Shown piece after piece: positions 13,736-53,537 of a DNA stretch of 64,000 nucleotides. The stretch is from NCBI GenBank assembly GCA_964016885.1, contig OZ024743.1:247008001-247072000 (forward strand), in the 5' to 3' direction. The position numbers and the translations under genes were made by a program. Position 1 is the stretch's first letter; each line of letters begins with the position of its first letter. The notes below the pieces were generated by a model that did not search any database, was not told where the DNA came from, and worked only from the letters and a program-made list of their open reading frames with translations. Source of the DNA: Eledone cirrhosa. Lineage: Eukaryota.

Positions 13736-13989
13736 GTAAGTAACATCTTATAGAAACTACAGACAAATATGGTTTCTTAAGAAGTGTTTGCTTTGTAAAA
13801 ATATTGATTGGTCCTTATTGTTTAGTTTTAATTAACATTTAATGAACTCTGTCCAACCCTTGCTAGCAGAGAAAATTAACATTGAATGATAATGATGATG
13901 ATTTAATAATTTTCAAATCTTTAACTTTTTTAACATCTACCTACCCACTACCCAACACTACCTCAAGTGTTATTATATAAAACCCCTCA

Positions 13990-17535: not shown

Positions 17536-17630
17536 GTAAGAATCTTAAGCTATATTCATGTTGTTCTTTCTGTTGCTGTTGCTGCTGCTGCTGTTGTGGC
17601 AGCATCACAGAATACTGTCAAACATTGTTG

Positions 17631-20160
17631 GTATCAGAATACTGGGATGGTGGAATATAGTCAATATAGTTTGATATCAGAATACTGGGATGGTGGAATA
17701 TAGTCAATATAGTTTGATATCAGAATACTGGGATGGTGGAATATAGTCAATATAGTTTGATATCAGAATACTGGGATGGTGGAATATAGTCAATATAGTT
17801 TGATATCAGAATACTGGGATGGTGGAATATAGTCAATATAGTTTGATATCAGAATACTGGGATGGTGGAATATAGTCAAATATAGTTTGATATCAGAATA
17901 CTGGGATGGTGGAATATAGTCAAATATAGTTTGATATCAGAATACTGGGATGGTGGAATATAGTCAAATATAGTTTGATATCAGAATACTGGGATGGTGG
18001 AATATAGTCAATATAGTTTGATATCAGAATACTGGGATGGTGGAATATAGTCAATATAGTTTGATATCAGAATACTGGGATGGTGGAATATAGTCAATAT
18101 AGTTTGATATCAGAATACTGGGATGGTGGAATATAGTCAAATATAGTTTGATATCAGAATACTGGGATGGTGGAATATAGTCAAATATAGTTTGATATCA
18201 GAATACTGGGATGGTGGAATATAGTCAATATAGTTTGATATCAGAATACTGGGAAGGTGGAATATAGTCAATATAGTTTGATATCAGAATACTGGGATGG
18301 TGGAATATAGTCAAATATAGTTTGATATCAGAATACTGGGAAGGTGGAATATAGTCAAATATAGTTTGATATCAGAATACTGGGAAGGTGGAATATAGTC
18401 AAATATAGTTTGATATCAGAATACTGGGAAGGTGGAATATAGTCAATATAGTTTGATATCAGAATACTGGGATGGTGGAATATAGTCAAATATAGTTTGA
18501 TATCAGAATACTGGGATGGTGGAATATAGTCAAATATAGTTTGATATCAGAATACTGGGATGGTGGAATATAGTCAATATAGTTTGATATCAGAATACTG
18601 GGAAGGTGGAATATAGTCAATATAGTTTGATATCAGAATACTGGGAAGGTGGAATATAGTCAAATATAGTTTGATATCAGAATACTGGGAAGGTGGAATA
18701 TAGTCAATATAGTTGGATATCAGAATACTGGGATGGTGGAATATAGTCAAATATAGTTTGATATCAGAATACTGGGAAGGTGGAATATAGTCAAATATAG
18801 TTTGATATCAGAATACTGGGATGGTGGAATATAGTCAATATAGTTTGATATCAGAATACTAGGATGGTGGAATATAGTCAATATAGTTTGTTATCAGAAT
18901 ACTGGGATGGTGGAATATAGTCAAATATAGTTTGATATCAGAATACTGGGATGGTGGAATATAGTCAAATATAGTTTGATATCAGAATACTGGGATGGTG
19001 GAATATAGTCAATATAGTTTGATATCAGAATACTGGGATGGTGGAATATAGTCAATATAGTTTGATATGAGAATACTGGGATGGTGGAATATAGTCAAAT
19101 ATAGTTTGATATCAGAATACTGGGATGGTGGAATATATTCAAATATAGTTTGATATCAGAATACTGGGATGGTGGAATATAGTCAAATATAGTTTGATAT
19201 CAGAATACTGGGATGGTGGAATATAGTCAATATAGTTTGATATCAGAATACTGGGATGGTGGAATATAGTCAAATATAGTTTGATATCAGAATACTGGGA
19301 TGGTGGAATATAGTCAATATAGTTTGATATCAGAATACTGGGATGGTGGAATATAGTCAATATAGTTTGATATCAGAATACTGGGATGGTGGAATATAGT
19401 CAATATAGTTTGATATCAGAATACTGGGATGGTGGAATATAGTCAATATAGTTTGATATCAGAATACTGGGATGGTGGAATATAGTCAAATATAGTTTGA
19501 TATCAGAATACTGGGATGGTGGAATATAGTCAAATATAGTTTGATATCAGAATACTGGGATGGTGGAATATAGTCAATATAGTTTGATATCAGAATACTG
19601 GGATGGTGGAATATAGTCAAATATAGTTTGATATCAGAATACTGGGATGGTGGAATATAGTCAATATAGTTTGATATCAGAATACTGGGATGGTGGAATA
19701 TAGTCAAATATAGTTTGATATCAGAATACTGGGATGGTGGAATATAGTCAAATATAGTTTGATATCAGAATACTGGGATGGTGGAATATAGTCAATATAG
19801 TTTGATATCAGAATACTGGGATGGTGGAATATAGTCAAATATAGTTTGATATCAGAATACTGGGATGGTGGAATATAGTCAATATAGTTTGATATCAGAA
19901 TACTGGGATGGTGGAATATAGTCAAATATAGTTTGATATCAGAATACTGGGATGGTGGAATATAGTCAATATAGTTTGATATCAGAATACTGGGATGGTG
20001 GAATATAGTCAAATATAGTTTGATATCAGAATACTGGGATGGTGGAATATAGTCAAATATAGTTTGATATCAGAATACTGGGATGGTGGAATATAGTCAA
20101 TATAGTTTGATATCAGAATACTGGGATGGTGGAATATAGTCAATATAGTTTGATATCAGA
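17631..20160. repeat. 43/44-bp minisatellite, left arm (intron 7)
   Basis: Unit atcagaatactgggatggtggaatatagtca(a)atatagtttgat, highly homogeneous. Confidence 0.97.
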
Positions 20161-21251
20161 TGTAGGAAAGGTGTAGGTAGGAACTCCATTCTTTGCCCCA
20201 AATGCAAACAATGGGTACACAAGAGATGTAGCGGGATCTCAGGAAGCTTAATTAAGAATGTAGGATTCACATGCAGCAGCTGTGCTGAAACAGCAAGCAA
20301 ACAGCCACAGGAAACAAGTACCACCAATCTCTGGGAGGGCCCTGTAGAAACAGTAGACAGCTTCTGCTACCTAGGTGACCGAATTAGCAACGGAGGTGGG
20401 TGCTCAGAAAGTACAATAACTAGGGTAAGAACGGGATGGAAGAAGTTTAGGGAACTACTACCACTGCTAGCTGCAAAAGGCTTCTCCCTCAGAATGAAAG
20501 GCAGACTGTATGATGCGTGTATCCGAACAGCGATGTTGCATGGTAGTGAGACCTGGGCGCTGAAGGTGGAAGACTTACGTAGATTAGAGAGAAACGAAGC
20601 CTGCATGCTCCGATGGATGTGTAACAGTAATATACGTGAACGACAAAGCATAAATGAATTGAGAGAGAGACTGAGCATAAGAGGAATCAAATGCTGCGTG
20701 CAGGAGAGGCGGTTACGCTGGTATGGACATGTGATGCGTATGAAGGATGACAGCTGCATAAAAAGGTGCAGAGCACTAGAAGTTGATGGAAACCGCGGAG
20801 TGGGGAGACCCAAGATGACTTGGGATGAGGTGATAAAAGCCGACCTTACCCAACTACACCTCTCAAAGTCAATGACACACGACCGTGACTTCTGGCGTCA
20901 CGCAGTAATACAGGGTACCCGACCTCCCATGGGTACATGCTGAAGCATATAAACGATATGCCCCCCCCCCCCCCCCCACACCGCAAGGTGGTCGTGGAGG
21001 TGCCACGGCAAAACAGCACCCAGCCCACACTGTAAAGTGGACGTGTAGGCGCCACGAAAAAGCACCCAGCACTCACTGTAAATGAGGTTGGTGTTAGGAA
21101 GGGCATCCAGCTGTAGAAATCAAGCCAGATCAGTTCCTGTATGAGCAAGGCATGGTCAGCCGACCAGACACTGCCCACAACAGGACAACCCGTCTAACCC
21201 ATGCTAGCGTGGAAGAACGGACGTAAAACGGTGATGATGATGATGATGATG
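20161..21251 (+). mobile_element. 5'-truncated RTE-clade LINE inserted in the minisatellite
   Basis: Open frame CRKGVGRNSILCPKCKQWVHKRCSG...FCYLGD...KGRLYDACIRTAMLHGSETW...RRLRWYGHVMR...GRPKMTW ends at 20943, followed by a 3' UTR and (GAT)n tail. Flanked by ATCAGA at 20155-20160 and 21252-21257. Confidence 0.9.
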
Positions 21252-23307
21252 ATCAGAATACTGGGATGGTGGAATATAGTCAATATAGTTTGATATCAGA
21301 ATACTGGGATGGTGGAATATAGTCAAATATAGTTTGATATCAGAATACTGGGATGGTGGAATATAGTCAAATATAGTTTGATATCAGAATACTGGGATGG
21401 TGGAATATAGTCAATATAGTTTGATATCAGAATACTGGGAAGGTGGAATATAGTCAATATAGTTTGATATCAGAATACTGGGATGGTGGAATATAGTCAA
21501 ATATAGTTTGATATCAGAATACTGGGAAGGTGGAATATAGTCAAATATAGTTTGATATCAGAATACTGGGAAGGTGGAATATAGTCAAATATAGTTTGAT
21601 ATCAGAATACTGGGAAGGTGGAATATAGTCAATATAGTTTGATATCAGAATACTGGGATGGTGGAATATAGTCAAATATAGTTTGATATCAGAATACTGG
21701 GATGGTGGAATATAGTCAAATATAGTTTGATATCAGAATACTGGGATGGTGGAATATAGTCAATATAGTTTGATATCAGAATACTGGGAAGGTGGAATAT
21801 AGTCAATATAGTTTGATATCAGAATACTGGGAAGGTGGAATATAGTCAAATATAGTTTGATATCAGAATACTGGGAAGGTGGAATATAGTCAATATAGTT
21901 GGATATCAGAATACTGGGATGGTGGAATATAGTCAAATATAGTTTGATATCAGAATACTGGGAAGGTGGAATATAGTCAAATATAGTTTGATATCAGAAT
22001 ACTGGGATGGTGGAATATAGTCAATATAGTTTGATATCAGAATACTAGGATGGTGGAATATAGTCAATATAGTTTGTTATCAGAATACTGGGATGGTGGA
22101 ATATAGTCAAATATAGTTTGATATCAGAATACTGGGATGGTGGAATATAGTCAAATATAGTTTGATATCAGAATACTGGGATGGTGGAATATAGTCAATA
22201 TAGTTTGATATCAGAATACTGGGATGGTGGAATATAGTCAATATAGTTTGATATCAGAATACTGGGATGGTGGAATATAGTCAAATATAGTTTGATATCA
22301 GAATACTGGGATGGTGGAATATATTCAAATATAGTTTGATATCAGAATACTGGGATGGTGGAATATAGTCAAATATAGTTTGATATGAGAATAGTGGGAT
22401 GGTGGAATATAGTCAATATAGTTTGATATCAGAATACTGGGATGGTGGAATATAGTCAAATATAGTTTGATATCAGAATACTGGGATGGTGGAATATAGT
22501 CAATATAGTTTGATATCAGAATACTGGGATGGTGGAATATAGTCAATATAGTTTGATATCAGAATACTGGGATGGTGGAATATAGTCAATATAGTTTGAT
22601 ATCAGAATACTGGGATGGTGGAATATAGTCAATATAGTTTGATATCAGAATACTGGGATGGTGGAATATAGTCAAATATAGTTTGATATCAGAATACTGG
22701 GATGGTGGAATATAGTCAAATATAGTTTGATATCAGAATACTGGGATGGTGGAATATAGTCAATATAGTTTGATATCAGAATACTGGGATGGTGGAATAT
22801 AGTCAAATATAGTTTGATATCAGAATACTGGGATGGTGGAATATAGTCAATATAGTTTGATATCAGAATACTGGGATGGTGGAATATAGTCAAATATAGT
22901 TTGATATCAGAATACTGGGATGGTGGAATATAGTCAAATATAGTTTGATATCAGAATACTGGGATGGTGGAATATAGTCAATATAGTTTGATATCAGAAT
23001 ACTGGGATGGTGGAATATAGTCAAATATAGTTTGATATCAGAATACTGGGATGGTGGAATATAGTCAATATAGTTTGATATCAGAATACTGGGATGGTGG
23101 AATATAGTCAAATATAGTTTGATATCAGAATACTGGGATGGTGGAATATAGTCAATATAGTTTGATATCAGAATACTGGGATGGTGGAATATAGTCAAAT
23201 ATAGTTTGATATCAGAATACTGGGATGGTGGAATATAGTCAAATATAGTTTGATATCAGAATACTGGGATGGTGGAATATAGTCAATATAGTTTGATATC
23301 AGAATAC
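21252..23307. repeat. 43/44-bp minisatellite, right arm (intron 7)
   Basis: Same unit; variant order copies the left arm at an offset of 3186 bp. Confidence 0.97.
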
Positions 23308-23372
23308 AGGGTTAGCAGTTTCAAAGAATTAATGTGATATTTCTTTTGAAATTATTTTTCATATTCTTTCAG

Positions 23373-27364: not shown

Positions 27365-30300
27365 AGGGTAAAGACCCCCTTTGATCATGAATGACCATGG
27401 TATTTACACCTAGAAAGTTCCCCTCCAGGGCACAAGCCTGGGCAAGGCGTTTTTGTGGAAGACCAGATGAAGCCACGTGTGTCTGTGTCCCCACTCAATG
27501 TCACCAATGTCTGAGAGAAAGGTCATGTGTGTCTGTCTCCCCACTCAATGTCACCAATGTCTGAGAGAAAGGTCATGTGTGTCTGTCTCCCCACTCAATG
27601 TCACCAATGTCTGAGAGAAAGGTCATGTGTGTCTGTCTCCCCACTCTATGTCACCAATGTCTGAGAGAAAGGTCATGTGTGTCTGTCTCCCCACTCTATA
27701 TCACCAATGTCTGAGAGAAAGGTCATGTGTGTCTGTCTCCCCACTCTATGTCACCAATGTCTGAGAGAAAGGTCATGTATGTCTGTCTCCCCACTCTATG
27801 TCACCAATGTCTGAGAGAAAGGTCATGTGTGTCTGTCTCCCCATTCTATGTCAGCAATGTCTGAGAGAAAGGTCATGTGTGTCTGTCTCCCCACTCTATG
27901 TCACCAATGTCTGAGAGAAAGGTCATGTATGTCTGTCTCCCCACTCTATATCACCAATGTCTGAGAGAAAGGTCATGTGTGTCTGTCTCCCCACTCTATA
28001 TCACCAATGTCTGAGAGAAAGGTCATGTGTGTCTGTCTCCCCACTCTATGTAACCAATGTCTGAGAGAAAGGTCATGTGTGTCTGTCTCCCCATTCTATG
28101 TCACCAATGTCTGAGAGAAAGGTCATGTGTGTCTGTCTCCCCACTCTATATCACCAATGTCTGAGAGAAAGGTCATGTGTGTCTGTCTCCCCACTCTATG
28201 TCACCAATGTCTGAGAGAAAGGTCATGTATGTCTGTCTCCCCACTCTATGTCACCAATGTCTGAGAGAAAGGTCATGTGTGTCTGTCTCCCCATTCTATG
28301 TCACCAATGTCTGAGAGAAAGGTCATGTGTGTCTGTCTCCCCACTCTATGTCACCAATGTCTGAGAGAAAGGTCATGTATGTCTGTCTCCCCACTCTATG
28401 TCACCAATGTCTGAGAGAAAGGTCATGTGTGTCTGTCTCTCCACTCTATGTCACCAATGTCTGAGAGAAAGGTCATGTATGTCTGTCTCCCCACTCTATG
28501 TCACCAATGTCTGAGAGAAAGGTCATGTGTGTCTGTCTCCCCATTCTATGTCACCAATGTCTGAGAGAAAGGTCATGTGTGTCTGTCTCCCCACTCTATG
28601 TCACCAATGTCTGAGAGAAAGGTCATGTATGTCTGTCTCCCCACTCTATATCACCAATGTCTGAGAGAAAGGTCATGTGTGTCTGTCTCCCCACTCTATA
28701 TCACCAATGTCTGAGAGAAAGGTCATGTGTGTCTGTCTCCCCACTCTATGTAACCAATGTCTGAGAGAAAGGTCATGTGTGTCTGTCTCCCCACTCTATG
28801 TCACCAATGTCTGAGAGAAAGGTCATGTATGTCTGTCTCCCCACTCTATGTCACCAATGTCTGAGAGAAAGGCCATGTGTGTCTGTCTCCCCACTCTATG
28901 TCACCAATGTCTGAGAGAAAGGCCATGTGTGTCTGTCTCCCCACTCTATATCGCCAATGTCTGAGAGAAAGGTCATGTGTGTCTGTCTCCCCACTCTATA
29001 TCGCCAATGTCTGAGAGAAAGGCCATGTGTGTCTGTCTCCCCACTCTATGTCACCAATGTCTGAGAGAAAGGTCATGTATGTCTGTCTCCCCACTCTATA
29101 TCACCAATGTCTGAGAGAAAGGTCATGTGTGTCTGTCTCCCCACTCTATGTCACCAATGTCTGAGAGAAAGGTCATGTGGGTCTGTCTCCCCACTCTATG
29201 TCACCAATGTCTGAGAGAAAGGTCATGTGTGTCTGTCTCCCCACTCTATGTCACCAATGTCTGAGAGAAAGGTCATGTATGTCTGTCTCCCCATTCTATG
29301 TCACCAATGTCTGAGAGAAAGGTCATGTGGGTCTGTCCCCCCCACTCTATGTCACCAATGTCTGAGAGAAAGGCCATGTGTGTCTGTCTCCCCACTCTAT
29401 GTCACCAATGTCTGAGAGAAAGGCCATGTGTGTCTGTCTCCCCACTCTATGTCACCAATGTCTGAGAGAAAGGTCATGTGTGTCTGTCTCCCCACTCTAT
29501 GTCACCAATGTCTGAGAGAAAGGCCATGTATGTCTGTCTCCCCACTCTATATCACCAATGTCCGAGAGAAATGTCATGTATGTCTGTCTCCCCACTCTAT
29601 ATCACCAATGTCTGAGAGAAAGGTCATGTGTGTCTGTCTCCCCACTCTGTCACCAATGTCTGAGAGAAAGGTCATGTGTGTCTGTCTCCCCACTCTATAT
29701 CACCAATGTCTGAGAGAAAGGTCATGTATGTCTGTCTCCCCACTCTATGTCAGCAATGTCTGAGAGAAAGGCCATGTGTGCCTGTCTCCCCACTCTATAT
29801 CACCAATGTCCGAGAGAAAGGCCATGTGTGTCTGTCTCCCCACTCTATGTCAGCAATGTCTGAGAGAAAGGCCATGTGTGTCTGTCTCCCCACTCTATAT
29901 CACCAATGTCTGAGAGAAAGGTCATGTATGTCTGTCTCCCCACTCTATGTCAGCAATGTCTGAGAGAAAGGCCATGTGTGTCTGTCTCCCCACTCTATAT
30001 CACCAATGTCCGAGAGAAAGGCCATGTGTGTCTGTCTCCCCACTCTATGTCAGCAATGTCTGAGAGAAAGGCCATGTGTGTCTGTTTCCCCACTCTATGT
30101 CACCAATGTCTGAGAGAAAGGTCATGTATGTCTGTCTCCCCACTCTATATCACCAATGTCTGAGAGAAAGGTCATGTATGTCTGTCTCCCCACTCTATAT
30201 CACCAATGTCCGAGAGAAAGGTCATGTGTGTCTGTCTCCCCACTCTATGTCAGCAATGTCTGAGAGAAAGGCCATGTGTGTCTGTTTCCCCACTCTATGT

Positions 30301-33300
30301 CACCAATGTCTGAGAGAAAGGTCATGTGTGTCTGTCTCCCCACTCTATGTCAGCAATGTCTGAGAGAAAGGCCATGTGTGTCTGTCTCCCCACTCTGTCA
30401 CCAATGTCTGAGAGAAAGGTCATGTGTGTCTGTCTCCCCACTCTATATCACCAATGTCTGAGAGAAAGGTCATGTATGTCTGTCTCCCCACTCTATGTCA
30501 GAAATGTCTGAGAGAAAGGTCATGTATGTCTGTCTCCCCACTCTATATCACCAATGTCTGAGAGAAAGGCCATGTGTGTCTGTTTCCCCACTCTATGTCA
30601 CCAATGTCTGAGAGAAAGGTCATGTATGTCTGTCTCCCCACTCTATATCACCAATGTCTGAGAGAAAGGTCATGTATGTCTGTCTCCCCACTCTATATCA
30701 CCAATGTCTGAGAGAAAGGTCATGTGTGTCTGTCTCCCCACTCTATGTCAGCAATGTCTGAGAGAAAGGCCATGTGTGTCTGTCTCCCCACTCTATGTCA
30801 CCAATGTCTGAGAGAAAGGTCATGTATGTCTGTCTCCCCACTCTATATCACGAATGTCTGAGAGAAAGGCCATGTGTGTCTGTTTCCCCACTCTATGTCA
30901 CCAATGTCTGAGAGAAAGGTCATGTATGTCTGTCTCCCCACTCTATATCACCAATGTCTGAGAGAAAGGTCATGTATGTCTGTCTCCCCACTCTATATCA
31001 CCAATGTCTGAGAGAAAGGTCATGTGTGTCTGTCTCCCCACTCTATGTCAGCAATGTCTGAGAGAAAGGCCATGTGTGTCTGTCTCCCCACTCTATGTCA
31101 CCAATGTCTGAGAGAAAGGTCATGTGTGTCTGTCTCCCCACTCTATGTCAGCAATGTCTGAGAGAAAGGTCATGTGTGTCTGTCTCCCCACTCTATGTCA
31201 GCAATGTCTGAGAGAAAGGTCATGTGGGTCTGTCTCCCCACTCGATGTCACCAATGTCTGAGAGAAAGCCCATGTGTGTCTGTCTCCCCACTCTATGTCA
31301 CCAATGTCTGAGAGAAAGGTCATGTATGTCTGTCTCCCCACTCTATGTCACCAATGTCTGAGAGAAAGGTCATGTGTGTCTGTCTCCCCACTCTATGTCA
31401 CCAATGTCTGAGAGAAAGGCCATGTGTGTCTGTCTCCCCACTCTATGTCACCAATGTCTGAGAAAGGTCATGTGTGTCTGTCTCCCCACTCTATGTCACC
31501 AATGTCTGAGAGAAAGGTCATGTGTGTCTGTCTCCCCACTCTATGTCACCAATGTCTGAGAAAGGCCATGTGTGTATGTCTCCCCACTCTATGTCACCAA
31601 TGTCTGAGAGAAAGGTCATGTGTGTCTGTCTCCCCACTCTATGTCACCAATGTCTGAGAGAAAGGCCATGTATGTCTGTCTCCCCACTCTATGTCACCAA
31701 TGTCTGAGAGAAAGGTCATGTATGTCTGTCTCCCCACTCAATGTCACCAATGTCTGAGAGAAAGGTCATGTGTGTCTGTCTCCCCACTCTATGTCACCAA
31801 TGTCTGAGAGAAAGGCCATGTGTGTCTGTCTCCCCACTCTATGTCACCAATGTCTGAGAGAAAGGTCATGTGTGTCTGTCTCCCCACTCTATGTCACCAA
31901 TGTCTGAGAGAAAGGTCATGTATGTCTGTCTCCCCATTCTATGTCACCAATGTCTGAGAGAAAGGTCATGTGGGTCTGTCCCCCCCACTCTATGTCACCA
32001 ATGTCTGAGAGAAAGGCCATGTGTGTCTGTCTCCCCACTCTATGTCACCAATGTCTGAGAGAAAGGCCATGTGTGTCTGTCTCCCCACTCTATGTCACCA
32101 ATGTCTGAGAGAAAGGTCATGTGTGTCTGTCTCCCCACTCTATGTCACCAATGTCTGAGAGAAAGGTCATGTGTGTCTGTCTCCCCACTCTATGTCACAA
32201 ATGTCTGAGAGAAAGGTCATGTATGTCTGTCTCCCCACTCTATATCACCAATGTCTGAGAGAAAGGCCATGTGTGTCTGTCTCCCCACTCTATGTCACCA
32301 ATGTCTGAGAGAAAGGCCATGTGTGTCTGTCTCCCCACTCTATGTCACCAATGTCTGAGAGAAAGGCCATGTGTGTCTGTCTCCCCACTCTATGTCACAA
32401 ATGTCTGAGAGAAAGGTCATGTGTGTCTGTCTCCCCACTCTATATCGCCAATGTCTGAGAGAAAGGCCATGTGTGTCTGTCTCCCCACTCTATGTCACCA
32501 ATGTCTGAGAGAAAGGTCATGTATGTCTGTCTCCCCACTCTATATCACCAATGTCTGAGAGAAAGGTCATGTGTGTCTGTCTCCCCACTCTATGTCACCA
32601 ATGTCTGAGAGAAAGGTCATGTGTGTCTGTCTCCCCACTCTATATCGCCAATGTCTGAGAGAAAGGTCATGTGTGTCTGTCTCCCCACTCTATGTCACCA
32701 ATGTCTGAGAGAAAGGTCATGTGTGTCTGTCTCCCCATTCTATGTCACCAATGTCTGAGAGAAAGGTCATGTGTGTCTGTCTCCCCATTCTATGTCACCA
32801 ATGTCTGAGAGAAAGGCCATGTGTGTCTGTCTCCCCACTCTATGTCACCAATGTCTGAGAGAAAGGTCATGTGTGTCTGTCTCCCCACTCTATGTCACCA
32901 ATGTCTGAGAGAAAGGTCATGTGTGTCTGTCTCCCCACTCTATGTCACCAATGTCTGAGAGAAAGTTCATGTATGTCTGTCTCCCCATTCTATGTCACCA
33001 ATGTCTGAGAGAAAGGTCATGTGTGTCTGTCTCCCCATTCTATGTCACCAATGTCTGAGAGAAAGGCCATGTGTGTCTGTCTCCCCACTCTATGTCACCA
33101 ATGTCTGAGAGAAAGGTCATGTGTGTCTGTCTCCCCACTCTATGTCACCAATGTCTGAGAGAAAGGTCATGTGTGTCTATGTCACCAATGTCTGAGAGAA
33201 AGTTCATGTATGTCTGTCTCCCCATTCTATGTCACCAATGTCTGAGAGAAAGGTCATGGGTGTCTGTCTCCCCATTCTATGTCACCAATGTCTGAGAGAA

Positions 33301-36300
33301 AGGCCATGTGTGTCTGTCTCCCCACTCTGTCACCAATGTCTGAGAGAAAGGTCATGTGTGTCTGTCTCCCCACTCTATGTCACCAATGTCTGAGAGAAAG
33401 GTCATGTGTGTCTGTCTCCCCACTCTATGTCACCAATGTCTGAGAGAAAGGCCATGTGTGTCTGTCTCCCCACTCTATGTCACCAATGTCTGAGAAAGGT
33501 CATGTGTGTCTGTCTCCCCACTCTATGTCACCAATGTCTGAGAGAAAGGTCATGTGTGTCTGTCTCCCCACTCTATGTCACCAATGTCTGAGAAAGGCCA
33601 TGTGTGTATGTCTCCCCACTCTATGTCACCAATGTCTGAGAGAAAGGTCATGTGTGTCTGTCTCCCCACTCTATGTCACCAATGTCTGAGAGAAAGGCCA
33701 TGTATGTCTGTCTCCCCACTCTATGTCACCAATGTCTGAGAGAAAGGTCATGTATGTCTGTCTCCCCACTCAATGTCACCAATGTCTGAGAGAAAGGTCA
33801 TGTGTGTCTGTCTCCCCACTCTATGTCACCAATGTCTGAGAGAAAGGCCATGTGTGTCTGTCTCCCCACTCTATGTCACCAATGTCTGAGAGAAAGGTCA
33901 TGTGTGTCTGTCTCCCCACTCTATGTCACCAATGTCTGAGAGAAAGGTCATGTGTGTCTGTCTCCCCACTCTATGTCACAAATGTCTGAGAGAAAGGTCA
34001 TGTATGTCTGTCTCCCCACTCTATATCACCAATGTCTGAGAGAAAGGCCATGTGTGTCTGTCTCCCCACTCTATGTCACCAATGTCTGAGAGAAAGGCCA
34101 TGTGTGTCTGTCTCACCACTCTATGTCACCAATGTCTGAGAGAAAGGCCATGTGTGTCTGTCTCCCCACTCTATGTCACCAATGTTTGAGAGAAAGGTCA
34201 TGTGTGTCTGTCTCCCCACTCTATGTCACCAATGTCTGAGAGAAAGGCCATGTGTGTCTGTCTCCCCACTCTATGTCACCAATGTCTGAGAGAAAGGTAA
34301 TGTGTGTCTGTCTCCCCACTCTATGTCACCAATGTCTGAGAGAAAGGCCATGTGTGTCTGTCTCACCACTCTATGTCACCAATGTCTGAGAGAAAGGCCA
34401 TGTGTGTCTGTCTCCCCACTCTATGTCACCAATGTCTGAGAGAAAGGCCATGTGTGTCTGTCTCCCCACTCTATGTCACCAATGTCTGAGAGAAAGGCCA
34501 TGTGTGTCTGTCTCCCCACTCTATGTCACCAATGTCTGAGAGAAAGGTCATGTGTGTCTGTCTCCCCACTCTATGTCACCAATGTCTGAGAGAAAGGCCA
34601 TGTGTGTCTGTCTCCCCACTCTATGTCACCAATGTCTGAGAGAAAGGTCATGTGTGTCTGTCTCCCCACTCTATGTCACCAATGTCTGAGAGAAAGGTCA
34701 TGTGTGTCTGTCTCCCCACTCTATGTCACAAATGTCTGAGAGAAAGGTCATGTATGTCTGTCTCCCCACTCTATATCACCAATGTCTGAGAGAAAGGCCA
34801 TGTGTGTCTGTCTCCCCACTCTATGTCACCAATGTCTGAGAGAAAGGCCATGTGTGTCTGTCTCCCCACTCTATGTCACCAATGTCTGAGAGAAAGGCCA
34901 TGTGTGTCTGTCTCCCCACTCTATGTCACCAATGTCTGAGAGAAAGGTCATGTGTGTCTGTCTCCCCACTCTATATCGCCAATGTCTGAGAGAAAGGCCA
35001 TGTGTGTCTGTCTCCCCACTCTATGTCACCAATGTCTGAGAGAAAGGTCATGTATGTCTGTCTCCCCACTCTATATCACCAATGTCTGAGAGAAAGGTCA
35101 TGTGTGTCTGTCTCCCCACTCTATGTCACCAATGTCTGAGAGAAAGGTCATGTGTGTCTGTCTCCCCACTCTATATCGCCAATGTCTGAGAGAAAGGTCA
35201 TGTGTGTCTGTCTCCCCACTCTATGTCACCAATGTCTGAGAGAAAGGTCATGTGTGTCTGTCTCCCCACTCTATGTCACCAATGTCTGAGAGAAAGTCAT
35301 GTGTGTCTGTCTCCCCACTCTATGTCACAAATGTCTGAGAGAAAGGTCATGTATGTCTGTCTCCCCACTCTATATCACCAATGTCTGAGAGAAAGGCCAT
35401 GTGTGTCTGTCTCCCCACTCTATGTCACCAATGTCTGAGAGAAAGGCCATGTGTGTCTGTCTCCCCACTCTATGTCACCAATGTCTGAGAGAAAGGCCAT
35501 GTGTGTCTGTCTCCCCACTCTATGTCACCAATGTCTGAGAGAAAGGCCATGTGTGTCTGTCTCCCCACTCTATGTCACCAATGTCTGAGAGAAAGGCCAT
35601 GTGTGTCTGTCTCCCCACTCTATGTCACCAATGTCTGAGAGAAAGGTCATGTGTGTCTGTCTCCCCACTCTATGTCACCAATGTCTGAGAGAAAGGTCAT
35701 GTGTGTCTGTCTCCCCACTCTATGTCACAAATGTCTGAGAGAAAGGTCATGTATGTCTGTCTCCCCACTCTATATCACCAATGTCTGAGAGAAAGGCCAT
35801 GTGTGTCTGTCTCCCCACTCTATGTCACCAATGTCTGAGAGAAAGGCCATGTGTGTCTGTCTCCCCACTCTATGTCACCAATGTCTGAGAGAAAGGCCAT
35901 GTGTGTCTGTCTCCCCACTCTATGTCACCAATGTCTGAGAGAAAGGTCATGTGTGTCTGTCTCCCCACTCTATATCGCCAATGTCTGAGAGAAAGGCCAT
36001 GTGTGTCTGTCTCCCCACTCTATGTCACCAATGTCTGAGAGAAAGGTCATGTATGTCTGTCTCCCCACTCTATATCACCAATGTCTGAGAGAAAGGTCAT
36101 GTGTGTCTGTCTCCCCACTCTATGTCACCAATGTCTGAGAGAAAGGTCATGTGGGTCTGTCTCCCCACTCTATGTCACCAATGTCTGAGAGAAAGGTCAT
36201 GTGTGTCTGTCTCCCCACTCTATGTCACCAATGTCTGAGAGAAAGGTCATGTGTGTCTGTCTCCCCACTCTATGTCACCAATGTCTGAGAGAAAGGCCAT

Positions 36301-36923
36301 GTGTGTCTGTCTCCCCACTCTATGTCACCAATGTCTGAGAGAAAGGTCATGTGTGTCTGTCTCCCCACTCTATGTCACCAATGTCTGAGAGAAAGGTCAT
36401 GTATGTCTGTCTCCCCATTCTATGTCACCAATGTCTGGGAAAAAGGTCATGTGGGTCTGTCCCCCCCACTCTATGTCACCAATGTCTGAGAGAAAGGCCA
36501 TGTGTGTCTGTCTCCCCACTCTATGTCACCAATGTCTGAGAGAAAGGTCATGTGTGTCTGTCTCCCCATTCTATGTCACCAATGTCTGAGAGAAAGGTCA
36601 TGTATGTCTGTCTCCCCACTCTATGTCACCAATGTCTGAGAGAAAGGCCATGTGTTTCTGTCTCCCCACTCTATGTCACCAATGTCTGAGAGAAAGGTCA
36701 TGTATGTCTGTCTCCCCACTCTATGTCACCAATGTCTGAGAGAAAGGCCATGTGTATCTGTCTCCCCACTCTATGTCACCAATGTCTGAGAGAAAGGTCA
36801 TGTGTGTCTGTCTCCCCACTCTATGTCACCAATGTCTGAGAGAAAGGTCATGTAAGTGATGTCACAATTCATTTTTTCCCAGCTGAGTGAACTGGAGCAA
36901 TGTAAAATAAAGTGTCTTGCTCA
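27365..36923 (-). mobile_element. CORE-like SINE split by an internal satellite expansion
   Basis: The flanks 27365-27475 and 36853-36923 align in order with the uninterrupted relative at ~41185-41460. Confidence 0.6.
27476..36852. repeat. 50-bp satellite, ~9.4 kb (~187 units), intron 11
   Basis: Unit tgtgtgtctgtctccccactctatgtcaccaatgtctgagagaaaggtca with recurrent variants. Confidence 0.98.
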
Positions 36924-41667: not shown

Positions 41668-42924
41668 TATCATCATCATCATCATCATCATCGTTTAACG
41701 TCCATTTTCCACGCTAGCATGGGTCTGGACGGGAATTGTCCCACTTGAACCAAGATTGGTTGTCTTGCTCAGGACTGTCTGGCAGGTTTTCTACGGCTGG
41801 ATGCCCTTCCTAACACCAACCACGTTTATAGTATGGACTGGGAGGTTTTTACCGTGTTACCTACATGGCCACATTACAGTGTGGACTGGATGTTGTGGTA
41901 CCAACATAGCTTTACATCGAAAGAGGTAGTGTAGATGGCGGTGGGGGTAGGGTTAGTGGGAAGGGGTGTATTTTAGTTAAGAGGTGCCTACTGACAGTAG
42001 GTTTTGCTTTGTACTTAGGCAAGGCGGGTCTTCTGTATTACTACGTAGCGCCAAAGATCTCGGTCCAGTGACATTTTCTTGGAGAGGTGTAAGTGTGTGA
42101 GGTCGGATTTTATCAAGTCGTCCCAGGGTTTTCTGGGTCTGTCTACTCCATGGCTACCGTCTATTTTGATCGCCCTGCACTTTTTTATACAGCTGTCATC
42201 TTTCATGTGCATCACGTGACCATACCAACGTAGTCTTCTCTCGAGTAAACAGCATCTGATCCCTCTTATTCCTAATTTCTCACTTAGTTCATTTATGCTT
42301 TGCTGTTCGCGTATATTACTATTACACATCCAACGGAGCATGCAAGCTTCGTTCCTCTCCAATCTGCGTAGATCCTCTGCACACAAGGTCCATGTCTCAC
42401 TTCCATGTAACAACGCTGTTCGTATGCAGGCATCATACAGCCTGCCTTTTATTTTTAGAGAGAAACCTTTAGCGGCCAATAGTGGTATAAGCTCTCTGAA
42501 CTTTTTCCATCCCGTTTGGACTCTAGCTACAGTACTTTCGGAGCACCCTCCACCACTGCTGATTTTGTCACCCAGGTAACGGAAGGTGTCCACTATTTCT
42601 ATAGAACCATCTGGGCAATGGAATGAGCTAGTATTCTGTGGGCATTTGCTGCTACTTATTGCACCAGAGCACCGGCCACATATAAAATCTATATTCTTAG
42701 TTAGCTTACCTGTGATCCCACTACATCTTTTATGCACCCATACTTTGCATTTGGGACATAAAATGGAGTTTCTGCCTACTCCTTTCCTACACACTAAGCA
42801 TGGCCATTTCCCAGATGGGACCAGTGCCCTATTCTCCATCCTACATATTAGGACTTTAGTCTTAGACAAGTTAACTTTCAGGCCTTTTGATTCTAGGCCA
42901 TGCTTCCAAGTTTGGAATTTCTCT
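41668..42924 (-). mobile_element. 5'-truncated RTE-clade LINE
   Basis: ORF 42869-42015 (GKWPCLVCRKGVGRNSILCPKCKVWVHKRCSG...YLGD...RRLRWYGHV) is from the same family as 20161-21251; (GAT)n tail at 41668-41692. Confidence 0.9.
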
Positions 42925-45740: not shown

Positions 45741-45778
45741 ATATATATATATATAGAGAGAGAGATAGATAGATAGAT

Positions 45779-48299
45779 ATATTTCTTTATTAGCCACAGG
45801 AGCACAAAAGAAGGGGACAAATTCAAAGGGGGAAGTTTACATACAATAAAAACGTGTAAAATGTTATCACAGCTGGAATTTAAAAGTTAGTCGATTTTCC
45901 CCAATAGGGGGAGACAGTTTATATGGGTAACACATACCCCCGAAAAAAAATGTGCAACCCTCATCTCCAGGAGTACGAAGAGCTTGTACTCCTTTCCTCT
46001 CCTCCTCCTTTTCCTCAACCTACAGGCTGATATAGAGAGAAGGCCCATTCACTCGGGCCATTCTCGCCACTTTCACCCACCTTTCATAAAACTTGCTGGG
46101 GTGCAGCACCTCTCTCTCCATCCTGATTCTTCTTCCAAAGTGGTATTTGAAAAAAAGAATCAGTTGTTGGCCGGAGAGAAAGGTGTCTGACCTCAGCCCT
46201 TTCAACCTTGTCCACCATACAACCTCTTTCGCCATAGCTATCACACAAAGGAAAACCGCCTCTCCTTCGTTTTTGAAGGAGGGTGGCGGTTTGATCATGA
46301 CAATGGACTCGGTGGTCAACTGGATTGGTCCCACCCGCGACAATAGTCGTTCTACATAGCCCCACAGGTCAGTGACGCCCGGGCAGTGTATGAATGCGTG
46401 CGCGACGGTTTCTTCGTCTCGCACGCACCTCGGACAGATCTTTTTTGCAGGGTCCCTGCCCGGGCGCCCATGTCTGTAGAGCTTGTCTCGAACTGGTAGA
46501 GCTCCTCGGTAGCACTGCCAGGCCAGGGACTTTTGGAAGTTGTCCATCGGTCCCGGGCGGAAGGTCCTACCGAACAGACTGGCCAGTTCATCTTCCTCTA
46601 CGCCTAGAGTTTCACCGAGCGCGTCGTCGCACTTGCTGCGGACCAACCCTCTATAGAATGACGAAGTGGAGTCTCCACTGATCGCCGGGTCCGCCTGCCA
46701 GAGGGCTGTGAGCGCCTGAGCACATTCGATGTGCCAGTCGCCTATTTTCCTCGGTCTCTGCTTGACCCAGGACTGCAGCTCGGTCAGCGAGACGAGTCGT
46801 GGGAAGGCTCGCCTCACGAACGGGGCCCACACCGGTTGTCCGGTGAGGAATACGTAGAGATGCCGCAGCCTGAGCGCGTGTTTGCGCATCGTCAACCACG
46901 GCATCCCCAACCCTCCGTTAGAAGGGTGTTGGCAGCAGATGGATCTTCTCACCAAAGGAGCCCGCCTCTTCCAAAGGAATCGGAAGAGCGCGCGCTCCAT
47001 TTTGGCGAGCGTTTTGGCTGGACAAGGCACGACGGTCAAGCGGTAGTAGATGGCGGACGCTATAAAAGTGTTCGCCACCTCCGCTCGACCTTTCAAGGAT
47101 AGTTTGCACTCGGCCCACTTCTGGGTGAGTGCAAACACCTTGGCCGTCACTTCGTTCCAGTTCTTCTCCACCTGGAGGTCCGGACCAAACCAGACCCCGA
47201 GCAGCTTTACCGGTCCTTCCGTCCAGCGTCCGACGACGCCATCGGAAGGCATCGGTCTGCCTCTCCACGATCCGAGTTGCAAACCGATGGACTTGTCCCG
47301 GTTCAGCTTCGCTCCCGTGAGACTTTCGTATTCCTTTAGTAAGGTGCCGACTTCCTCGATTTGCGAGGCGCTCGACACCATTACTGTCACATCGTCGGCG
47401 TAGGCCGACGCCGCTTTCCGCAGTCCCGGTTCCAGAGGGATGCCCTGCAATAGCTCCAGCTTCCGCAGTAGTGGCTCGAGAGTCAGTACGTACAGAAGGG
47501 AGGAGAGAGAGGGCATCCCTGTCGAATGGATCGCGTAATATGGAACGGCTCCGAGAGGTAGCCGTTCACCTTGACCCTTGAGTATATGTTGCTGTTGTGC
47601 ATTGCAGGAATCCAGCCCCTGAACACGGGTCCGAAGCCTGCCGCCTCGAGCACCGCATCCAGGTAACGATGGTCAACCCTATCGAAAGCCTTAGACTGAT
47701 CCAAGTTGATCAGGGCCCCACCGATGTATCGCATGAGGTGGAGGTTGTCGTGTATGGACCTGGTCGGGATCGCGCATGTCTGCGCTTCTCCCACCAGGTT
47801 CTCGACGACAAGCGCCAGCCTCTTTGCCAACACCTTGGCCAAAATCTGTAACTCTGTGTTTAGCAGAGTTATGGGCCGGAAGTTGCCTATGTCATCCCCC
47901 TTATTCTCGTCCTTCCTGATTAGTGTGACCACGCCCCCGGTTACAGAACTGGGAATTCTCCCGTTCTGTTGCCAGTTGCAGTAGACCGCTTCCAGGAGAC
48001 CGGAGAATAAGTCCGGCATTGCTACGTAAAATTCGTAGGGTAGACCGTCGAGACCTGGAGATTTGCGTTTGCCGCATTGGCTCAGCGCGTCCCCTATCTC
48101 AGTGGCTGAAATCGGCTTTTCGCAGAACTTCGCCTCGCCGTCCGAGAGTCGCGGTAGGCCGTCGAGGTATGGACCGAAATCCATAGCCTCTCCCGGCGCG
48201 CCGCTCCCGCCGAGCAGCCGAGCAAAGTGCCGCTGAAAAGCCGCACACATCTGCTTCGGCTCACGTATCACGCGTCCGTTTTGGTCCTTCAAAGACCGA
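45779..48299 (-). mobile_element. Tx1/L1-clade LINE copy A (5'-truncated, ~2.5 kb)
   Basis: RT and zf-RVT part of ORF2 plus 3' UTR with AATAAA (45791-45786). Relative to copy C it has a 30-bp deletion (IERVGCKPGF) near 47722 and a 2-bp frameshift near 47505. (GATA)n on both sides. Confidence 0.92.
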
Positions 48300-48324
48300 T
48301 AGATAGATAGATAGATAGATAGAT

Positions 48325-48920
48325 ATGTTTCTTTATTAGACACAGGGGCACAAAAGAAGGGGACAAATACAAAGGGGGAAGTTTACATACAATAAAAACG
48401 TGTAAAATGTTATCACAAATGCAATTTAAAAAGTTAGTCGATTTTCCCCAATAGGGGAGACAGTTCATATGGGTAATACATACCCCCGAAAAAATGTGCA
48501 ACCCTCAACTCCAGTAATACGAAGAGTTTGTACTCCTTTCCTCTCCTCCTCCTTTTCCTCAACCTACAGGCTGATATAGAGAGAAGGCCCATTCACTCGG
48601 GCCATTCTCGCCACTTTCACCCACCTTTCATAAAACTTGCTGGGGTGCAGCACCTCTCTCTCCATCCTGATTCTTCTTCCAAAGTGGTATTTGAAAAAAA
48701 GAACCAGTTGTTGGCCGGAGAGAAAGGTGTCTGACCTCAGCCCTTTCAACCTTGTCCACCATACAACCTCTTTCGCCATAGCTATCACACAAAGGAAAAC
48801 CGCCTCTCCTTCGTTTTTGAAGGAGGGTGGCGGTTTGATCATGACAATGGACTCGGTGGTCAACCGGATTGGTCCCACCCGCGACAATAGTCGTTCTACA
48901 TAGCCCCACAGGTCAGTGAC
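48325..48920 (-). mobile_element. Tx1/L1-clade LINE copy B (5'-truncated, ~0.6 kb)
   Basis: C-terminal end of ORF2 plus 3' UTR, near-identical to copies A and C; (GATA)n on both sides. Confidence 0.92.
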
Positions 48921-48967
<47 letters not shown>

Positions 48968-49206
48968 TATTTCTTTATTAGCCACAGGGGCACAAAAGAA
49001 GGGGACAAATACAAAGGGGGAAGTTTACATACAATAAAAACGTGTAAAATGTTATCACAGATGGAATTTAAAAGTTAGTCGATTTTCCCCAATAGAGGGA
49101 GACAGTTTATATGGGTAACACAGACCCCCGAAAAAAATGTGCAACCCTCATCTCCAGGAGTACGAAGAGCTTGTACTCCTTTCCTCTCCTCCTCCTTTTC
49201 CTCAAC

Positions 49207-52200
49207 CTACAGGCTGATATAGAGAGAAGGCCCATTCACTCGGGCCATTCTCGCCACTTTCACCCACCTTTCATAAAACTTGCTGGGGTACAGCACCTCT
49301 CTCTCCATCCTGATTCTTCTTCCAAAGTGGTATTTGAAAAAAAGAATCAGTTGTTGGCCGGAGAGAAAGGTGTCTGACCTCAGCCCTTTCAACCTTGTCT
49401 ACCATACAACCTCTTTCGCCATAGCTATCACACAAAGGAAAACCGCCTCTCCTTCGTTTTTGAAGGAGGGTGGCGGTTTGATCATGACAATGGACTCGGT
49501 GGTCAACTGGATTGGTCCCACCCGCGACAATAGTCGTTCTACATAGCCCCACAGGTCAGTGACGCCCGGGCAGTGTATGAATGCGTGCGCGACGGTTTCT
49601 TCGTCTCGCACGCACCTCGGACAGATCTTTTTTGCAGGGTCCCTGCCCGGGCGCCCATGTCTGTAGAGCTTGTCTCGAACTGGTAGAGCTCCTCGGTAGC
49701 ACTGCCAGGCCAGGGACTTTTGGAAGTTGTCCATCGGTCCCGGGCGGAAGGTCCTACCGAACAGACTGGCCAGTTCATCTTCCTCCACGCCTAGAGTTTC
49801 ACCGAGCGCGTCGTCGCACTTGCTGCGGACCAACCCTCTATAGAATGACGAAGTGGAGTCTCCACTGATCGCTGGGTCCGCCTGCCAGAGGGCTGTGAGC
49901 GCCTGAGCACATTCGATGTGCCAGTCGCCCATTTTCCTCGGTCTCTGCTTGACCCAGGACTGCAGCTCGGTCAGCGAGACGAGTCGTGGGAAGGCTCGCC
50001 TCACGAACGGGGCCCACACCGGTTGTCCGGTGAGGAATACGTAGAGATGCCGCAGCCTGAGCGCGTGTTTGCGCATCGTCAACCACGGCATCCCCAGCCC
50101 TCCGTTAGAAGGGTGTTGGCAGCAGATGGATCTTCTTACCAAAGGAGCCCGCCTCTTCCAAAGGAATCGGAAGAGGGCGCGCTCCATTTTGGCGAGCGTT
50201 TTGGCTGGACAAGGCACGACGGTCAAGCGGTAGTAGATGGCGGACGCTATAAAAGTGTTCGCCACCTCCGCTCGACCTTTCAAGGATAGTTTGCACTCGG
50301 CCCACTTCTGGGTGAGTGCAAACACCTTGGCCGTCACTTCGTTCCAGTTCTTCTCCACCTGGAGGTCCGGACCAAACCAGACCCCGAGCAGCTTTACCGG
50401 TCCTTCCGTCCAGCGTCCGACGACGCCATCGGAAGGCATCGGTCTGCCTCTCCACGATCCGAGTTGCAAACCGATGGACTTGTCCCGGTTCAGCTTCGCT
50501 CCTGTGAGACTTTCGTATTCCTTTAGTAAGGTGCCGACTTCCTCGATTTGCGAGGCGCTCGACACCATTACTGTCACGTCGTCGGCGTAGGCCGACGCCG
50601 CTTTCCGCAGTCCCGGTTCCAGAGGGATGCCCTGCAATAGCTCCAGCTTCCGCAGTAGTGGCTCGAGAGTCAGTACGTACAGAAGGGAGGAGAGAGGGCA
50701 TCCCTGTCGAATGGATCGCGTAATATGGAACGGCTCCGAGAGGTAACCGTTCACCTTGACCCTTGAGCAGATGTTGCTGTTGTGCATTGCAGCAATCCAG
50801 CCCCTGAACACGGGTCCGAAGCCTGCCGCCTCGAGCACCGCATCCAGGTAACGATGGTCAACCCTATCGAAAGCCTTAGACTGATCCAAGTTGATCAGGG
50901 CCCCACCGAAGCCGGGTTTACACCCTACCCTCTCTATGATGTATCGCATGAGGTGGAGGTTGTCGTGTATGGACCTGGTCGGGATCGCGCATGTCTGCGC
51001 TTCTCCCACCAGGTTCTCGACGACAAGCGCCAGCCTCTTTGCCAACACCTTGGCCAAAATCTGTAACTCTGTGTTTAGCAGAGTTATGGGCCGGAAGTTG
51101 CCTATGTCATCCCCCTTATTCTCGTCCTTCCTGATTAGTGTGACCACGCCCCCGGTTACAGAACTGGGAATTCTCCCGTTCTGTTGCCAGTTGCAGTAGA
51201 CCGCTTCCAGGAGACCGGAGAATAAGTCCGGCATTGCTACGTAAAATTCGTAGGGTAGACCGTCGAGACCTGGAGATTTGCGTTTGCCGCATTGGCTCAG
51301 CGCGTCCCCTATCTCAGTGGCTGAAATCGGCTTTTCGCAGAACTTCGCCTCACTGTCCGAGAGTCGCGGTAGGCCGTCGAGGTATGGACCGAAATCCATA
51401 GCCTCTCCCGGCGCGCCGCTCCCCCCGAACAGCCGAGCAAAGTGCCGCTGAAAAGCCGCACACATCTGCTTCGGCTCACGTATCACGCGTCCGTTTTGGT
51501 CCTTCAAAGACCGAATCGTGGACTTGTTGCCACTTTTTGCCTCCGTCACTCGGGCCCAGCTAACAGCTTTGGCTCCCTCGTTTCCCAGAGCACGTATTTT
51601 GCTTCTGACAACGCAGCCCTCGTGCTTTGCGTCGAAGAACTGGTCCAAGGCCGTTCTCGTTGCTAGCACGCTGGCTACGTTGCCACTTCTAATTGCCTCT
51701 TCTACTTTATCTACCAGTTCCTTCTCGGTTCTATTTCTATCTAACGCTAATTCTTTACTAAAAACTATCGAGTCTAATCTAACTGCCCTCTTGAGAGAGT
51801 ACCACCATCTGTTGTTGACAATGGCCCCTGTCAAGTGCTGTTTAACTAAAGTGCTAATCCGTCTACTGTAGGCTTTGCTTGTCGGTAACGACAAGTTCAG
51901 CTTCCAGTAGCCGGGTCCTTGTCTATGGGTTCTATCAAGGTTGGCCATGCAGGTCACTAGTTTGTGATCTGAATAGGCAACCATGAACATTTGTGGACAG
52001 CTTAACATGTCCCTATCCTTATTTCTAACTAGAACCCTATCTAGGTACGATCTAGATGTTCCGCTACGATTACTCCACGTCCACATTGGCGCAGTCGGAA
52101 AATCTAGTCGATATCTATCGGCCAGGTCAAATCGGTCGATTAACTGTTTGAGGCTGTTACACCCCCCTTTGTCGGGACATGCTCCCACATAGTCCCAACG

Positions 52201-52644
52201 TGCATCTAGGATTCCATTCCAGTCCCCCACTAAAAGCAAGGAGCGGGACGTTCCCAGAAAAGTCTCTAGACGTTTGAAGAAGTCTGGCCGCGGTGTCCCG
52301 GATGGGGCATATGCGGCCACCAGCCTGAAGGCTCCACCTTCACTACCGTCAACGTCTAGGACCACCAGTCGACCCTCCGGGTCCAGATGTACCGTCTGTG
52401 TTACGAGGCCCAGGTGTTTCCGCAGCAAAACGGCAACTCCGCCCCCACCCCCCGGTTGACAGAGAGATGCGTAGATTTCAAAGTCATCGAAGATGGGGGC
52501 CAGCTGTCGCTCGCCGTGGATCCTGGACTCGCAAATGGCTACCACATCCAAACTGTGTGACCTGAGGTCGTTTAAGAGTTTGCCCTGTTTCCAGGGCATC
52601 CCCAGGCCGCGTACGTTAACACATCCAACTCTTATATTGGCCAT
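49207..52644 (-). CDS. LINE ORF2: APE endonuclease, reverse transcriptase, C-terminal zinc finger (premature TAG at 49401-49399)
   Basis: NVRGL, GDWN, SYLDR, SDH (APE); PGLDG, FRPITLLN, DQSKAFDRVDH, QGCPLS, YADD (RT); CPRC..ETVAHAFIHC (zf-RVT). DQxKAFDRVDH and GGLG are typical of the Tx1/L1 group. Copies A and B have TGG at the stop position, so the consensus ORF is 1145 aa. Confidence 0.93.
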
Positions 52645-52677
52645 GTTGGTGCTGAAAAGTTAAAAGAGGAAAAGAGA

Positions 52678-53310
52678 TCACTCACCCTTCGCCTCCTGGG
52701 GACCAGGCCGCACGATTTCCATGGGGGTGTTGGAGGGGTTGTCTGGATGGGTGGTGGTTTCCGGCGGGGTGGGGACGCAGATGTTTGGTGGGGTGGGGTC
52801 TGGTGGAATGGGGGTGTCTGGGGTGGGGAGGTATTTGAGAAGGACGCGGTTGAGTGGTTTCACGCAGGAATTCCCCACATCCTTCTCAAATGTTTCTTTT
52901 AGGGACCTATAAGTTTGTATAGGGACCCTAATCAGTTTTAGGTTCATTTTTTTGCTATTTTTTATAGAGTGGGCGAAAGTTTTCCCTTCGGTGAAAACCG
53001 AAGGGTCGTTCGTAATGGTCTCCATTAGTGTTTTGTTTTCAGTGTTTATGTAAGTGTAAGTGTAATTTTCTTGTGTTGTGTTTGTTTTTGTCTGTAGTTC
53101 TTGTGTGTGCTTTCGTTTTGTTGTAGGTATTTTGTTTTCAGGAGGTGGGGGTTTTGTTTGTGATATTTTTGTTGTTTGTGTTGGTGGTTGTATGTTTGTG
53201 GTAGTGTTTGCTGGTTTTTTGCTTTTGTGATGTCTTTTCTTTCTTTTCGAGCGATGGGGTTCTCCCTCGTCTTCACTGGGTGATGGCGAGATAGCCTCAT
53301 CTGTTGTATC
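52678..53310 (-). CDS. LINE ORF1 C-terminal fragment (5'-truncated)
   Basis: Open frame ending 33 bp before the ORF2 ATG; basic KRKKRHHK and Pro/Thr-rich segments. The listed start codon lies in the microsatellite flank and is not real. Confidence 0.7.
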   Translation of the reverse strand, partial: DTTDEAISPSPSEDEGEPHRSKRKKRHHKSKKPANTTTNIQPPTQTTKISQTKPPPPENKIPTTKRKHTQELQTKTNTTQENYTYTYINTENKTLMETITNDPSVFTEGKTFAHSIKNSKKMNLKLIRVPIQTYRSLKETFEKDVGNSCVKPLNRVLLKYLPTPDTPIPPDPTPPNICVPTPPETTTHPDNPSNTPMEIVRPGPQEAKGE

Positions 53311-53537
53311 GTATAGATAAGTAGATAGATAGATAGATGCATATATATATCCCACACTGTAACATAGTTGGTGTTAAGAAGGGCATCCAGCTATAGAAAC
53401 CAAGCTAAAATACAGATCAATATGAGCATGACATGGTCTCCAGACCTGACTTGTCTCAAAACGTGACAACCCATCTAACCCATGCAAGCGTAGAAAATGG
53501 ACATGAAGCAATGATGATAATGAGAATTATATATATA

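Follow-up and report, generated by a model that had tools for sequence, protein, structure and literature searches.

We describe here a family of long interspersed nuclear elements (LINEs) of the L1 group, which almost certainly inserts in a site-specific manner into GATA repeats. The family was recognized in a stretch of 64,000 nucleotides from Eledone cirrhosa (contig OZ024743.1, positions 247,008,001 to 247,072,000 of the forward strand), hereafter the window, where three copies form a stack with GATA tracts at every boundary. As judged by sequence comparison, the stack probably reflects independent insertions of a young element into (TATC)n/(GATA)n, the target likely being set by the element's own apurinic/apyrimidinic-type endonuclease (APE).

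There are 5,946 exact occurrences of the 27-base 3' end of the family in the genome (3.0 Gb), 4,895 of them (82%) followed by YATATCT, and TATC is also found at the 5' junction of 69 out of 96 copies. This 5' TATC, together with the lack of added repeat at imperfect insertion sites, indicates that the repeat is not a 3' tail but the target of insertion, in agreement with the original prediction, made from the window alone; the pattern that would have refuted this prediction, repeat at the 3' end only in most copies, was not observed. The same prediction had envisaged one family inserting into GATA: this holds for the window family, which is, however, not alone, being part of a whole clade of sister families with the same habit.

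The window stack and the element

Copy 1 (45780-48297, about 2.5 kb), copy 2 (48326-48920, 595 bp) and copy 3 (48968-53312, 4345 bp) all lie on the minus strand and share one 3' end, ...AATAAAGAAAYA, while their 5' truncation points are different. Near-identity, common orientation and distinct truncations had been noted before and are borne out, pairwise identity being 96.6-97.6%, with private indels. Copy 1 retains the reverse transcriptase (RT), the C-terminal part and the 3' untranslated region (UTR); copy 2 ends ...AAAGAAACA; copy 3 lacks the first ~1.5 kb, and thus even this 4.3-kb copy is truncated, relative to an element of ~5.84 kb.

All four boundaries, the outermost 5' side included, are GATA tracts, as originally reported. 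A (GATA)4 tract (45764-45779), extended by (GA)n and (TA)n as far as 45740, lies on the 3' side of copy 1. A (GATA)7 tract (48298-48325) separates the 3' end of copy 2 from the 5' junction of copy 1, where element and tract share a 2-base microhomology. Copy 3 is separated from copy 2 by a tract at 48921-48967, with 11 perfect units at 48924-48967, and its 5' junction is formed by an imperfect tract at 53313-53338, with 3 perfect units at 53324-53335. Runs of three or more GATA or TATC units are found nowhere else in the window, so their match with the four junctions is not due to chance.

Copy 3 is 99.66% identical to L074, an unlinked full-length copy on another contig, as compared to 97.1-97.6% to its neighbours in the stack, which argues that the window stack is not a duplication; copies 1 and 2 are 97.8% and 97.1% identical to L074, respectively. 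Three independent insertions, the explanation initially favoured over segmental duplication, are supported by these identities, along with the truncations and private indels. Copy 2, the most diverged, is likely the founder of the stack, while copy 3 is judged to be its youngest member. Copy 2 would have inserted first, followed by copy 1 into its 3' tract and by copy 3 into its 5' tract. The truncation of copy 2, at 48920, is nearly the same as that of two unlinked copies, L088 and L103 (reference 5249-5250), which may indicate a hotspot or a short master copy.

The natural full-length copy, L074:1218-7059, is 5,842 bp long and contains two open reading frames (ORFs): ORF1, of 638 aa, with a CCHC knuckle, and ORF2, of 1,145 aa, which is open. 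Intact two-ORF copies were found elsewhere in the genome. In the window, ORF2 of copy 3 (49207-52644, minus strand) encodes an APE endonuclease (PF03372), a reverse transcriptase (PF00078) and a zinc-binding domain (PF13966), all scoring above the Pfam cut-off; it contains a premature stop at 49399-49401, absent from other copies, and is accompanied by the C-terminal third of ORF1 (52678-53312, minus strand). The ORF1 CCHC motif, albeit visible, scores below the Pfam cut-off. In copy 1, ORF2 is broken by both a private 30-bp deletion at 47722/47723 and a private 2-bp insertion at 47503-47504. An AATAAA signal, present in all three copies, is located in copy 3 at 48974-48979 (minus strand), 6 bases before the last base of the element.

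Among solved structures, ORF2 best matches L1 ORF2p (E 6.7e-52, as compared to 1.7e-22 for R2). An ORF2 combining an N-terminal APE, an RT and a C-terminal zinc-binding domain, the two-ORF organization, 5' truncation and target-site duplications are all features of the L1 group. A single-sequence fold of the endonuclease reached a pLDDT (predicted local distance difference test) of 41 and was set aside. With 436 exact 5' heads in the genome, in addition to the 3' ends mentioned above, and with 100% identity in 40 out of 40 scored matches to 303 bases of copy 3, the family is large and young. One copy, L184, represents a case of 5' inversion: its 5' flank consists of part of its ORF1 in inverted orientation.

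Target sites and target-site duplications

Flanks were surveyed in 99 copies on C1, drawn in positional order from the first 100 on the list; 96 of them have a usable 5' flank, L085, L094 and L100 having been dropped, as chaining reached the locus edge. A 5' junction was scored as TATC when a stretch of 12 bases lying no more than 8 bases from it agreed with TATC in 11 or all 12; at random positions this occurs in 0.12% of cases in the window and in 0.7% in the loci. Among all truncated copies, 54 out of 81 feature a 5' TATC. Both the 5' flanks (69/96) and the 3' ends (4,895/5,946) are well above the 20% of flanks beyond which a target preference is recognized in a passage of PMC4494074.

Duplications were evaluated in 188 distinct copies with both ends and at least 94% identity, pooled from all searches and therefore not a random sample. 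No poly(A) was found in any of the 188. In 27 of them the duplication has a non-repeat right edge and is thus informative: at 24 of these sites, the 3' side of the element does not exceed the 5' side in repeat content. Removal of L148, L150, L001 and the second L162 row from the latter, as unreliable, left 20 clean sites, where duplications range from 9 to 21 bp, with a median of 15 (up to 4 bases of microhomology being counted in), and begin at or within one base of the last base of the element. In element-sense letters the site reads TRYC^TAT(C)T. All 20 clean sites have TAT directly after the element, and in 19 of the 20 the cut is preceded by TRYC, four bases which are not part of the duplication.

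Proposed mechanism of insertion and alternative explanations

The element acquires 9-21-bp target-site duplications on integration and, we propose, carries no tail of its own. The ORF2 endonuclease would nick the GATA strand between units, at 5'-AGATA^GRYA-3', opposite to the element sense. Since AATAAA lies 6 bases before the end and poly(A) is missing, the transcript likely reads a few UAUC units past the element end; these would pair with the freed GATA end and prime reverse transcription at the last base of the element. A second cut, 9-21 bases further on, would generate the duplication, leaving repeat on both sides of each insertion, so that both sides would remain targets. The full-length RNA would start in the upstream repeat, because a fixed CTATC leader is inherited: 5' heads are preceded by CTAYM in 412 out of 436 cases, and leader variants such as CTACC recur at unlinked loci. 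A leader reading CTCTATC is placed between duplication and head in L063.

On balance, the endonuclease is the probable main determinant of the target. The bases before the cut are TRYC at nearly all clean sites, although they are neither duplicated nor provided with a partner in the RNA end, which favours protein recognition across the nick, by analogy with Tx1L and SART1/TRAS1. The best of the alternatives, which we regard as unlikely, assigns the choice to RNA-DNA pairing: a loosely specific endonuclease would cut in many places, and only nicks leaving a GATA end would pair with UAUC and be extended. The position of the element end after AATAAA and the lack of poly(A) make internal priming by UAUC likely, the invariant TAT of the clean sites speaks for it as well, and AAAGAAA|TCTATC junctions, found in 7 of the 188 copies, show some slack. 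Pairing, however, puts no constraint on the bases before the cut, and TRYC is nonetheless found there in 8 out of 9 short-array sites, as compared to 1 out of 112 background TATCT sites. Moreover, the element is not followed by a TATC unit in L004 and L199, where only 3 bases are shared with UAUC.

A second alternative, very improbable and in our opinion largely refuted, is that the repeat is an element-borne 3' tail, seeded at random sites, 5' repeats being due to stacking alone. In its favour are the YATATCT following most 3' ends, the 40 out of 96 copies lying behind the end of another clade member, and the excess of 3' repeat at 3 of the 27 informative sites. Stacking does not, however, account for truncated copies devoid of an upstream clade member, where TATC is still found at the 5' side in 26 out of 48 cases, and in 10 out of 14 young ones. 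Raw counts are used here; a tally excluding 7 non-primary junctions (26/41) was set aside, as one of the 7, L237, has another repeat and not element sequence on its flank. Furthermore, no repeat has been added at the other 24 informative sites, and in two of them there is none at all; nor would a tail predict the TRYC before the cut. These sites and the TATC 5' flanks speak against a tail-seeding LINE of the CR1, L2 or RTE type. The window itself offers an internal contrast, a LINE-like fragment of 1.1 kb (20161-21253) which looks different from the GATA-targeting family, as it features an (ATG)n tail at the 3' end only, along with a short apparent duplication; it may be of an RTE-like class. 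In the microsatellite seeding by snake CR1 LINEs, too, the repeat is a tail, whereas here it precedes the insertion and is duplicated. The association of snake CR1 3' ends with simple repeats is described in parts of PMC6050309 and PMC3157835.

Tandem duplication and misassembly are both extremely unlikely as origins of the window stack. Stacks of copies with identical truncation exist elsewhere, and duplication does therefore occur in the family; the three window copies, however, differ in truncation point and private indels, copy 3 is more similar to an unlinked copy than to its neighbours, and, among 40 scored candidates for each of the 3' ends of copies 1 and 2, full identity was obtained with the copy itself and no other. 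Junctions of the same type are found in contigs of public runs: in X1 and X5, stacked copies are joined by GATA, and in X4 and X6, truncated copies continue into it. The rows considered are few, and the runs come from three studies and three organism codes; X1 may be identical to the source sample, and DNA of the same host may be present in the others. Equally negligible is random insertion followed by better survival in or near microsatellites, which the richness of the genome in simple repeats and the passive accumulation proposed for Drosophila Waldo-A/B (in a passage of PMC3812793) might suggest, given that the bias is most pronounced among the youngest truncated copies (30 out of 34 at 98% identity or more, versus 14 out of 29 below 95%) and concerns one repeat, in one orientation, with a phase fixed to the base.

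Some observations do weigh against the explanation proposed here. The TATC score is missed by 27 of the 96 5' flanks: 4 of these are still element sequence by BLAST, because of internal deletions or rearrangements, in L199 TATC is located just beyond a long duplication, and the rest include older copies and copies in stacks with very short tracts. Three young solitary copies, L207, L229 and L247, nevertheless have no clear junction TATC. The 3 informative sites with more repeat on the 3' side have already been mentioned. In copy 3, the 11 units on the 3' side contrast with less than two perfect units immediately at the 5' junction, an imbalance that only slippage or the addition of a tail would explain. 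The TRYC background is drawn from a single window, outside the stack, and the degenerate units upstream of the cut (TGTC, TACC) could represent decayed arrays. Finally, in the RT tree discussed below, deep support for a Tx1 placement is weak, the link to the fish/amphibian group being 82/67.

Sister families, relatives and other features of the window

Neighbouring elements with other 3' UTRs, and at least 8 distinct 5' heads, also begin and end in TATC, and their ORF2s are 74-84% identical to that of the window family. By these termini, at least 8 sister families share the TATC/GATA target. The catalytic APE motifs and a hairpin loop, WTWxN[RH]SGxSR[ST]YLDR, are kept in all 7 aligned ORF2s of the clade. 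Out of 27,717 starts of D(TATC)4 arrays, 6,193 (22%) come directly after a clade-type terminus, compared to 4 in the reverse control. Of 20 hand-picked arrays without a terminus motif, 7 have an adjacent ORF2 and 2 more begin with a sister 5' head; about half of the (TATC)4 arrays may thus touch the clade, the sample being small and non-random.

In addition to the 5' side (40/96), a clade member is found on the 3' side of 43 out of 99 copies, and on either side of 58 out of 99. Stacking, although common, thus stays within a factor of about two of what the availability of arrays would give, and a preference of the element for its own junction is not needed. Tandem copies with identical truncation were observed in L010/L011, L018/L019, L028/L029, L198, L129, L130 and L001; L010 and L011 also have an internal deletion in common. 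Such stacks indicate either unequal crossover involving the GATA tracts on their flanks or repeated use of a template. Two other repeats were encountered next to TATC tracts. In L303 and L304 a recurring end, ...GGTCTCACATA, lacking the AATAAA-GAAA motif, is followed by (TATC)n and possibly belongs to another GATA-associated element. A repeat starting with TA(A/G)GGCGGGTAAAATT lies right after TATC tracts in L301, L230, L104 and L245, and is not among the ORF1 matches.

The RT tree comprises 42 rows, in which curated Tx1 and vertebrate L1 sequences are not represented; an earlier tree had been obtained by a quick method. The clade groups with P0001 (100/100), and the two are sister to unnamed proteins with 47-53% RT identity, again at 100/100. 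Three fish proteins, BAD04856, BAC82621 and XP_077060974, presumably of the Kibi/Koshi type, have 33-37% RT identity to the clade, which falls outside their group. A profile comparison of ORF1 with the fish ZCCHC3-type ORF1 gave a probability of 6%, while an Atlas look-alike of ORF1 with ZCCHC3-type domains (0.90) is to be taken as a lead only. Membership in the Tx1 clade is no more than likely. The closest outside relatives after P0001, the P0002 group, are unnamed high-copy ORF2 proteins, in clusters of up to 732, whose hairpin loop differs from that of the clade. A metagenome scan for P0001 and the unnamed group gave distant elements only (best identity ~25-33%), and a GATA array was found in none of the 80.

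The element behaves like a microsatellite-targeting Tx1 element, but by its target it is neither Kibi nor Koshi. These teleost elements of the Tx1 clade insert into TC and TTC microsatellites, and crocodilian Tx1 families into TTCC/TTTC, as reported in passages of PMC4494074 and PMC3812793. All are APE-type LINEs of the L1 group residing in microsatellites; here, the target is TATC/GATA, and the pattern of the site, TRYC^TAT(C)T, is not that of insertion into (TC)n or (TTC)n, as in Kibi/Koshi. In Xenopus laevis Tx1L, a sequence-specific APE endonuclease sets the insertion site, according to portions of PMC1950540. Its target is a unique site in the Tx1D transposon, whereas here it is a simple repeat, and its hairpin loop reportedly exceeds the L1 loop in length, whereas the loop of the present element is as long as in L1.

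Short tandem repeats are also targeted by Waldo and Mino (R1 clade), by Dong, Togen and HERO (restriction-like endonuclease or other clades) and by SART1/TRAS1, the repeats being ACAY, AC, TAA, TG and telomeric ones, in the relevant excerpts of PMC3812793, PMC4640811 and PMC7265360; target specificity of SART1/TRAS1 is set by the endonuclease (PMC7265360, in part). All these elements belong to other clades and use repeats other than GATA, and SART1 keeps a poly(A) tail, unlike the element described here. Tandem copies around a target-site duplication are described for crocodilian SINEU-3 and Tx1-Mar in a section of PMC4494074; the likeness lies in the tandem arrangement, but there the target is a Mariner transposon and the stacked elements are short interspersed nuclear elements.

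In the portions considered of an Octopus vulgaris annotation (PMC13282606), 13 recently active L1-Tx1 families are listed and the word 'target' is absent. Likewise, nothing on a GATA target appears in the parts considered of PMC9004415, PMC3862624, PMC4889948, PMC2684134 and PMC6515669. A GATA-targeting LINE was not found in the literature searched, of which Repbase and the founding 2004 paper were not part, and prior annotation is quite possible. Relative to that literature, GATA is a new target among the known microsatellite-targeting LINEs (Kibi, Koshi, Waldo, Togen), and adds a tetranucleotide to the short list of microsatellites hit by site-specific LINEs; no principle is overturned by it. 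With more doubt than confidence, we put forward the wider view of an undescribed L1-group lineage, separate from Kibi/Koshi, which would have acquired GATA specificity independently and diversified into at least 8 coexisting families with one target, would be transcribed from and primed on this target, would still be active, and, through the splitting and duplication of arrays, would border about half of the GATA microsatellites. The mechanism by which APE-type elements target microsatellites is called not well understood in a passage of PMC3812793. Thousands of young insertions, a cut mapped within 3 bases and sister endonucleases with a shared loop make the choice between protein recognition and RNA pairing testable. 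In addition, the abundance of GATA microsatellites is tied to a transposon clade, a link of relevance to the design of markers and to the evolution of repeats.

The rest of the window contains two satellites: one at 27477-36853 (9.4 kb), with a 50-bp unit in ~188 copies at 95% identity, and one at 17628-23311, with units of ~43-44 bp, broken by the LINE-like 3' fragment with the (ATG)n tail. A second copy of this fragment, 72% identical, is found at 41669-42791. A decayed gag-like fragment (2587-3063, plus strand) and a mariner-like transposase fragment (13976-14365, minus strand) both score below the Pfam cut-off, and an open frame of 257 codons at 1745-2515 (minus strand) has no Pfam match.

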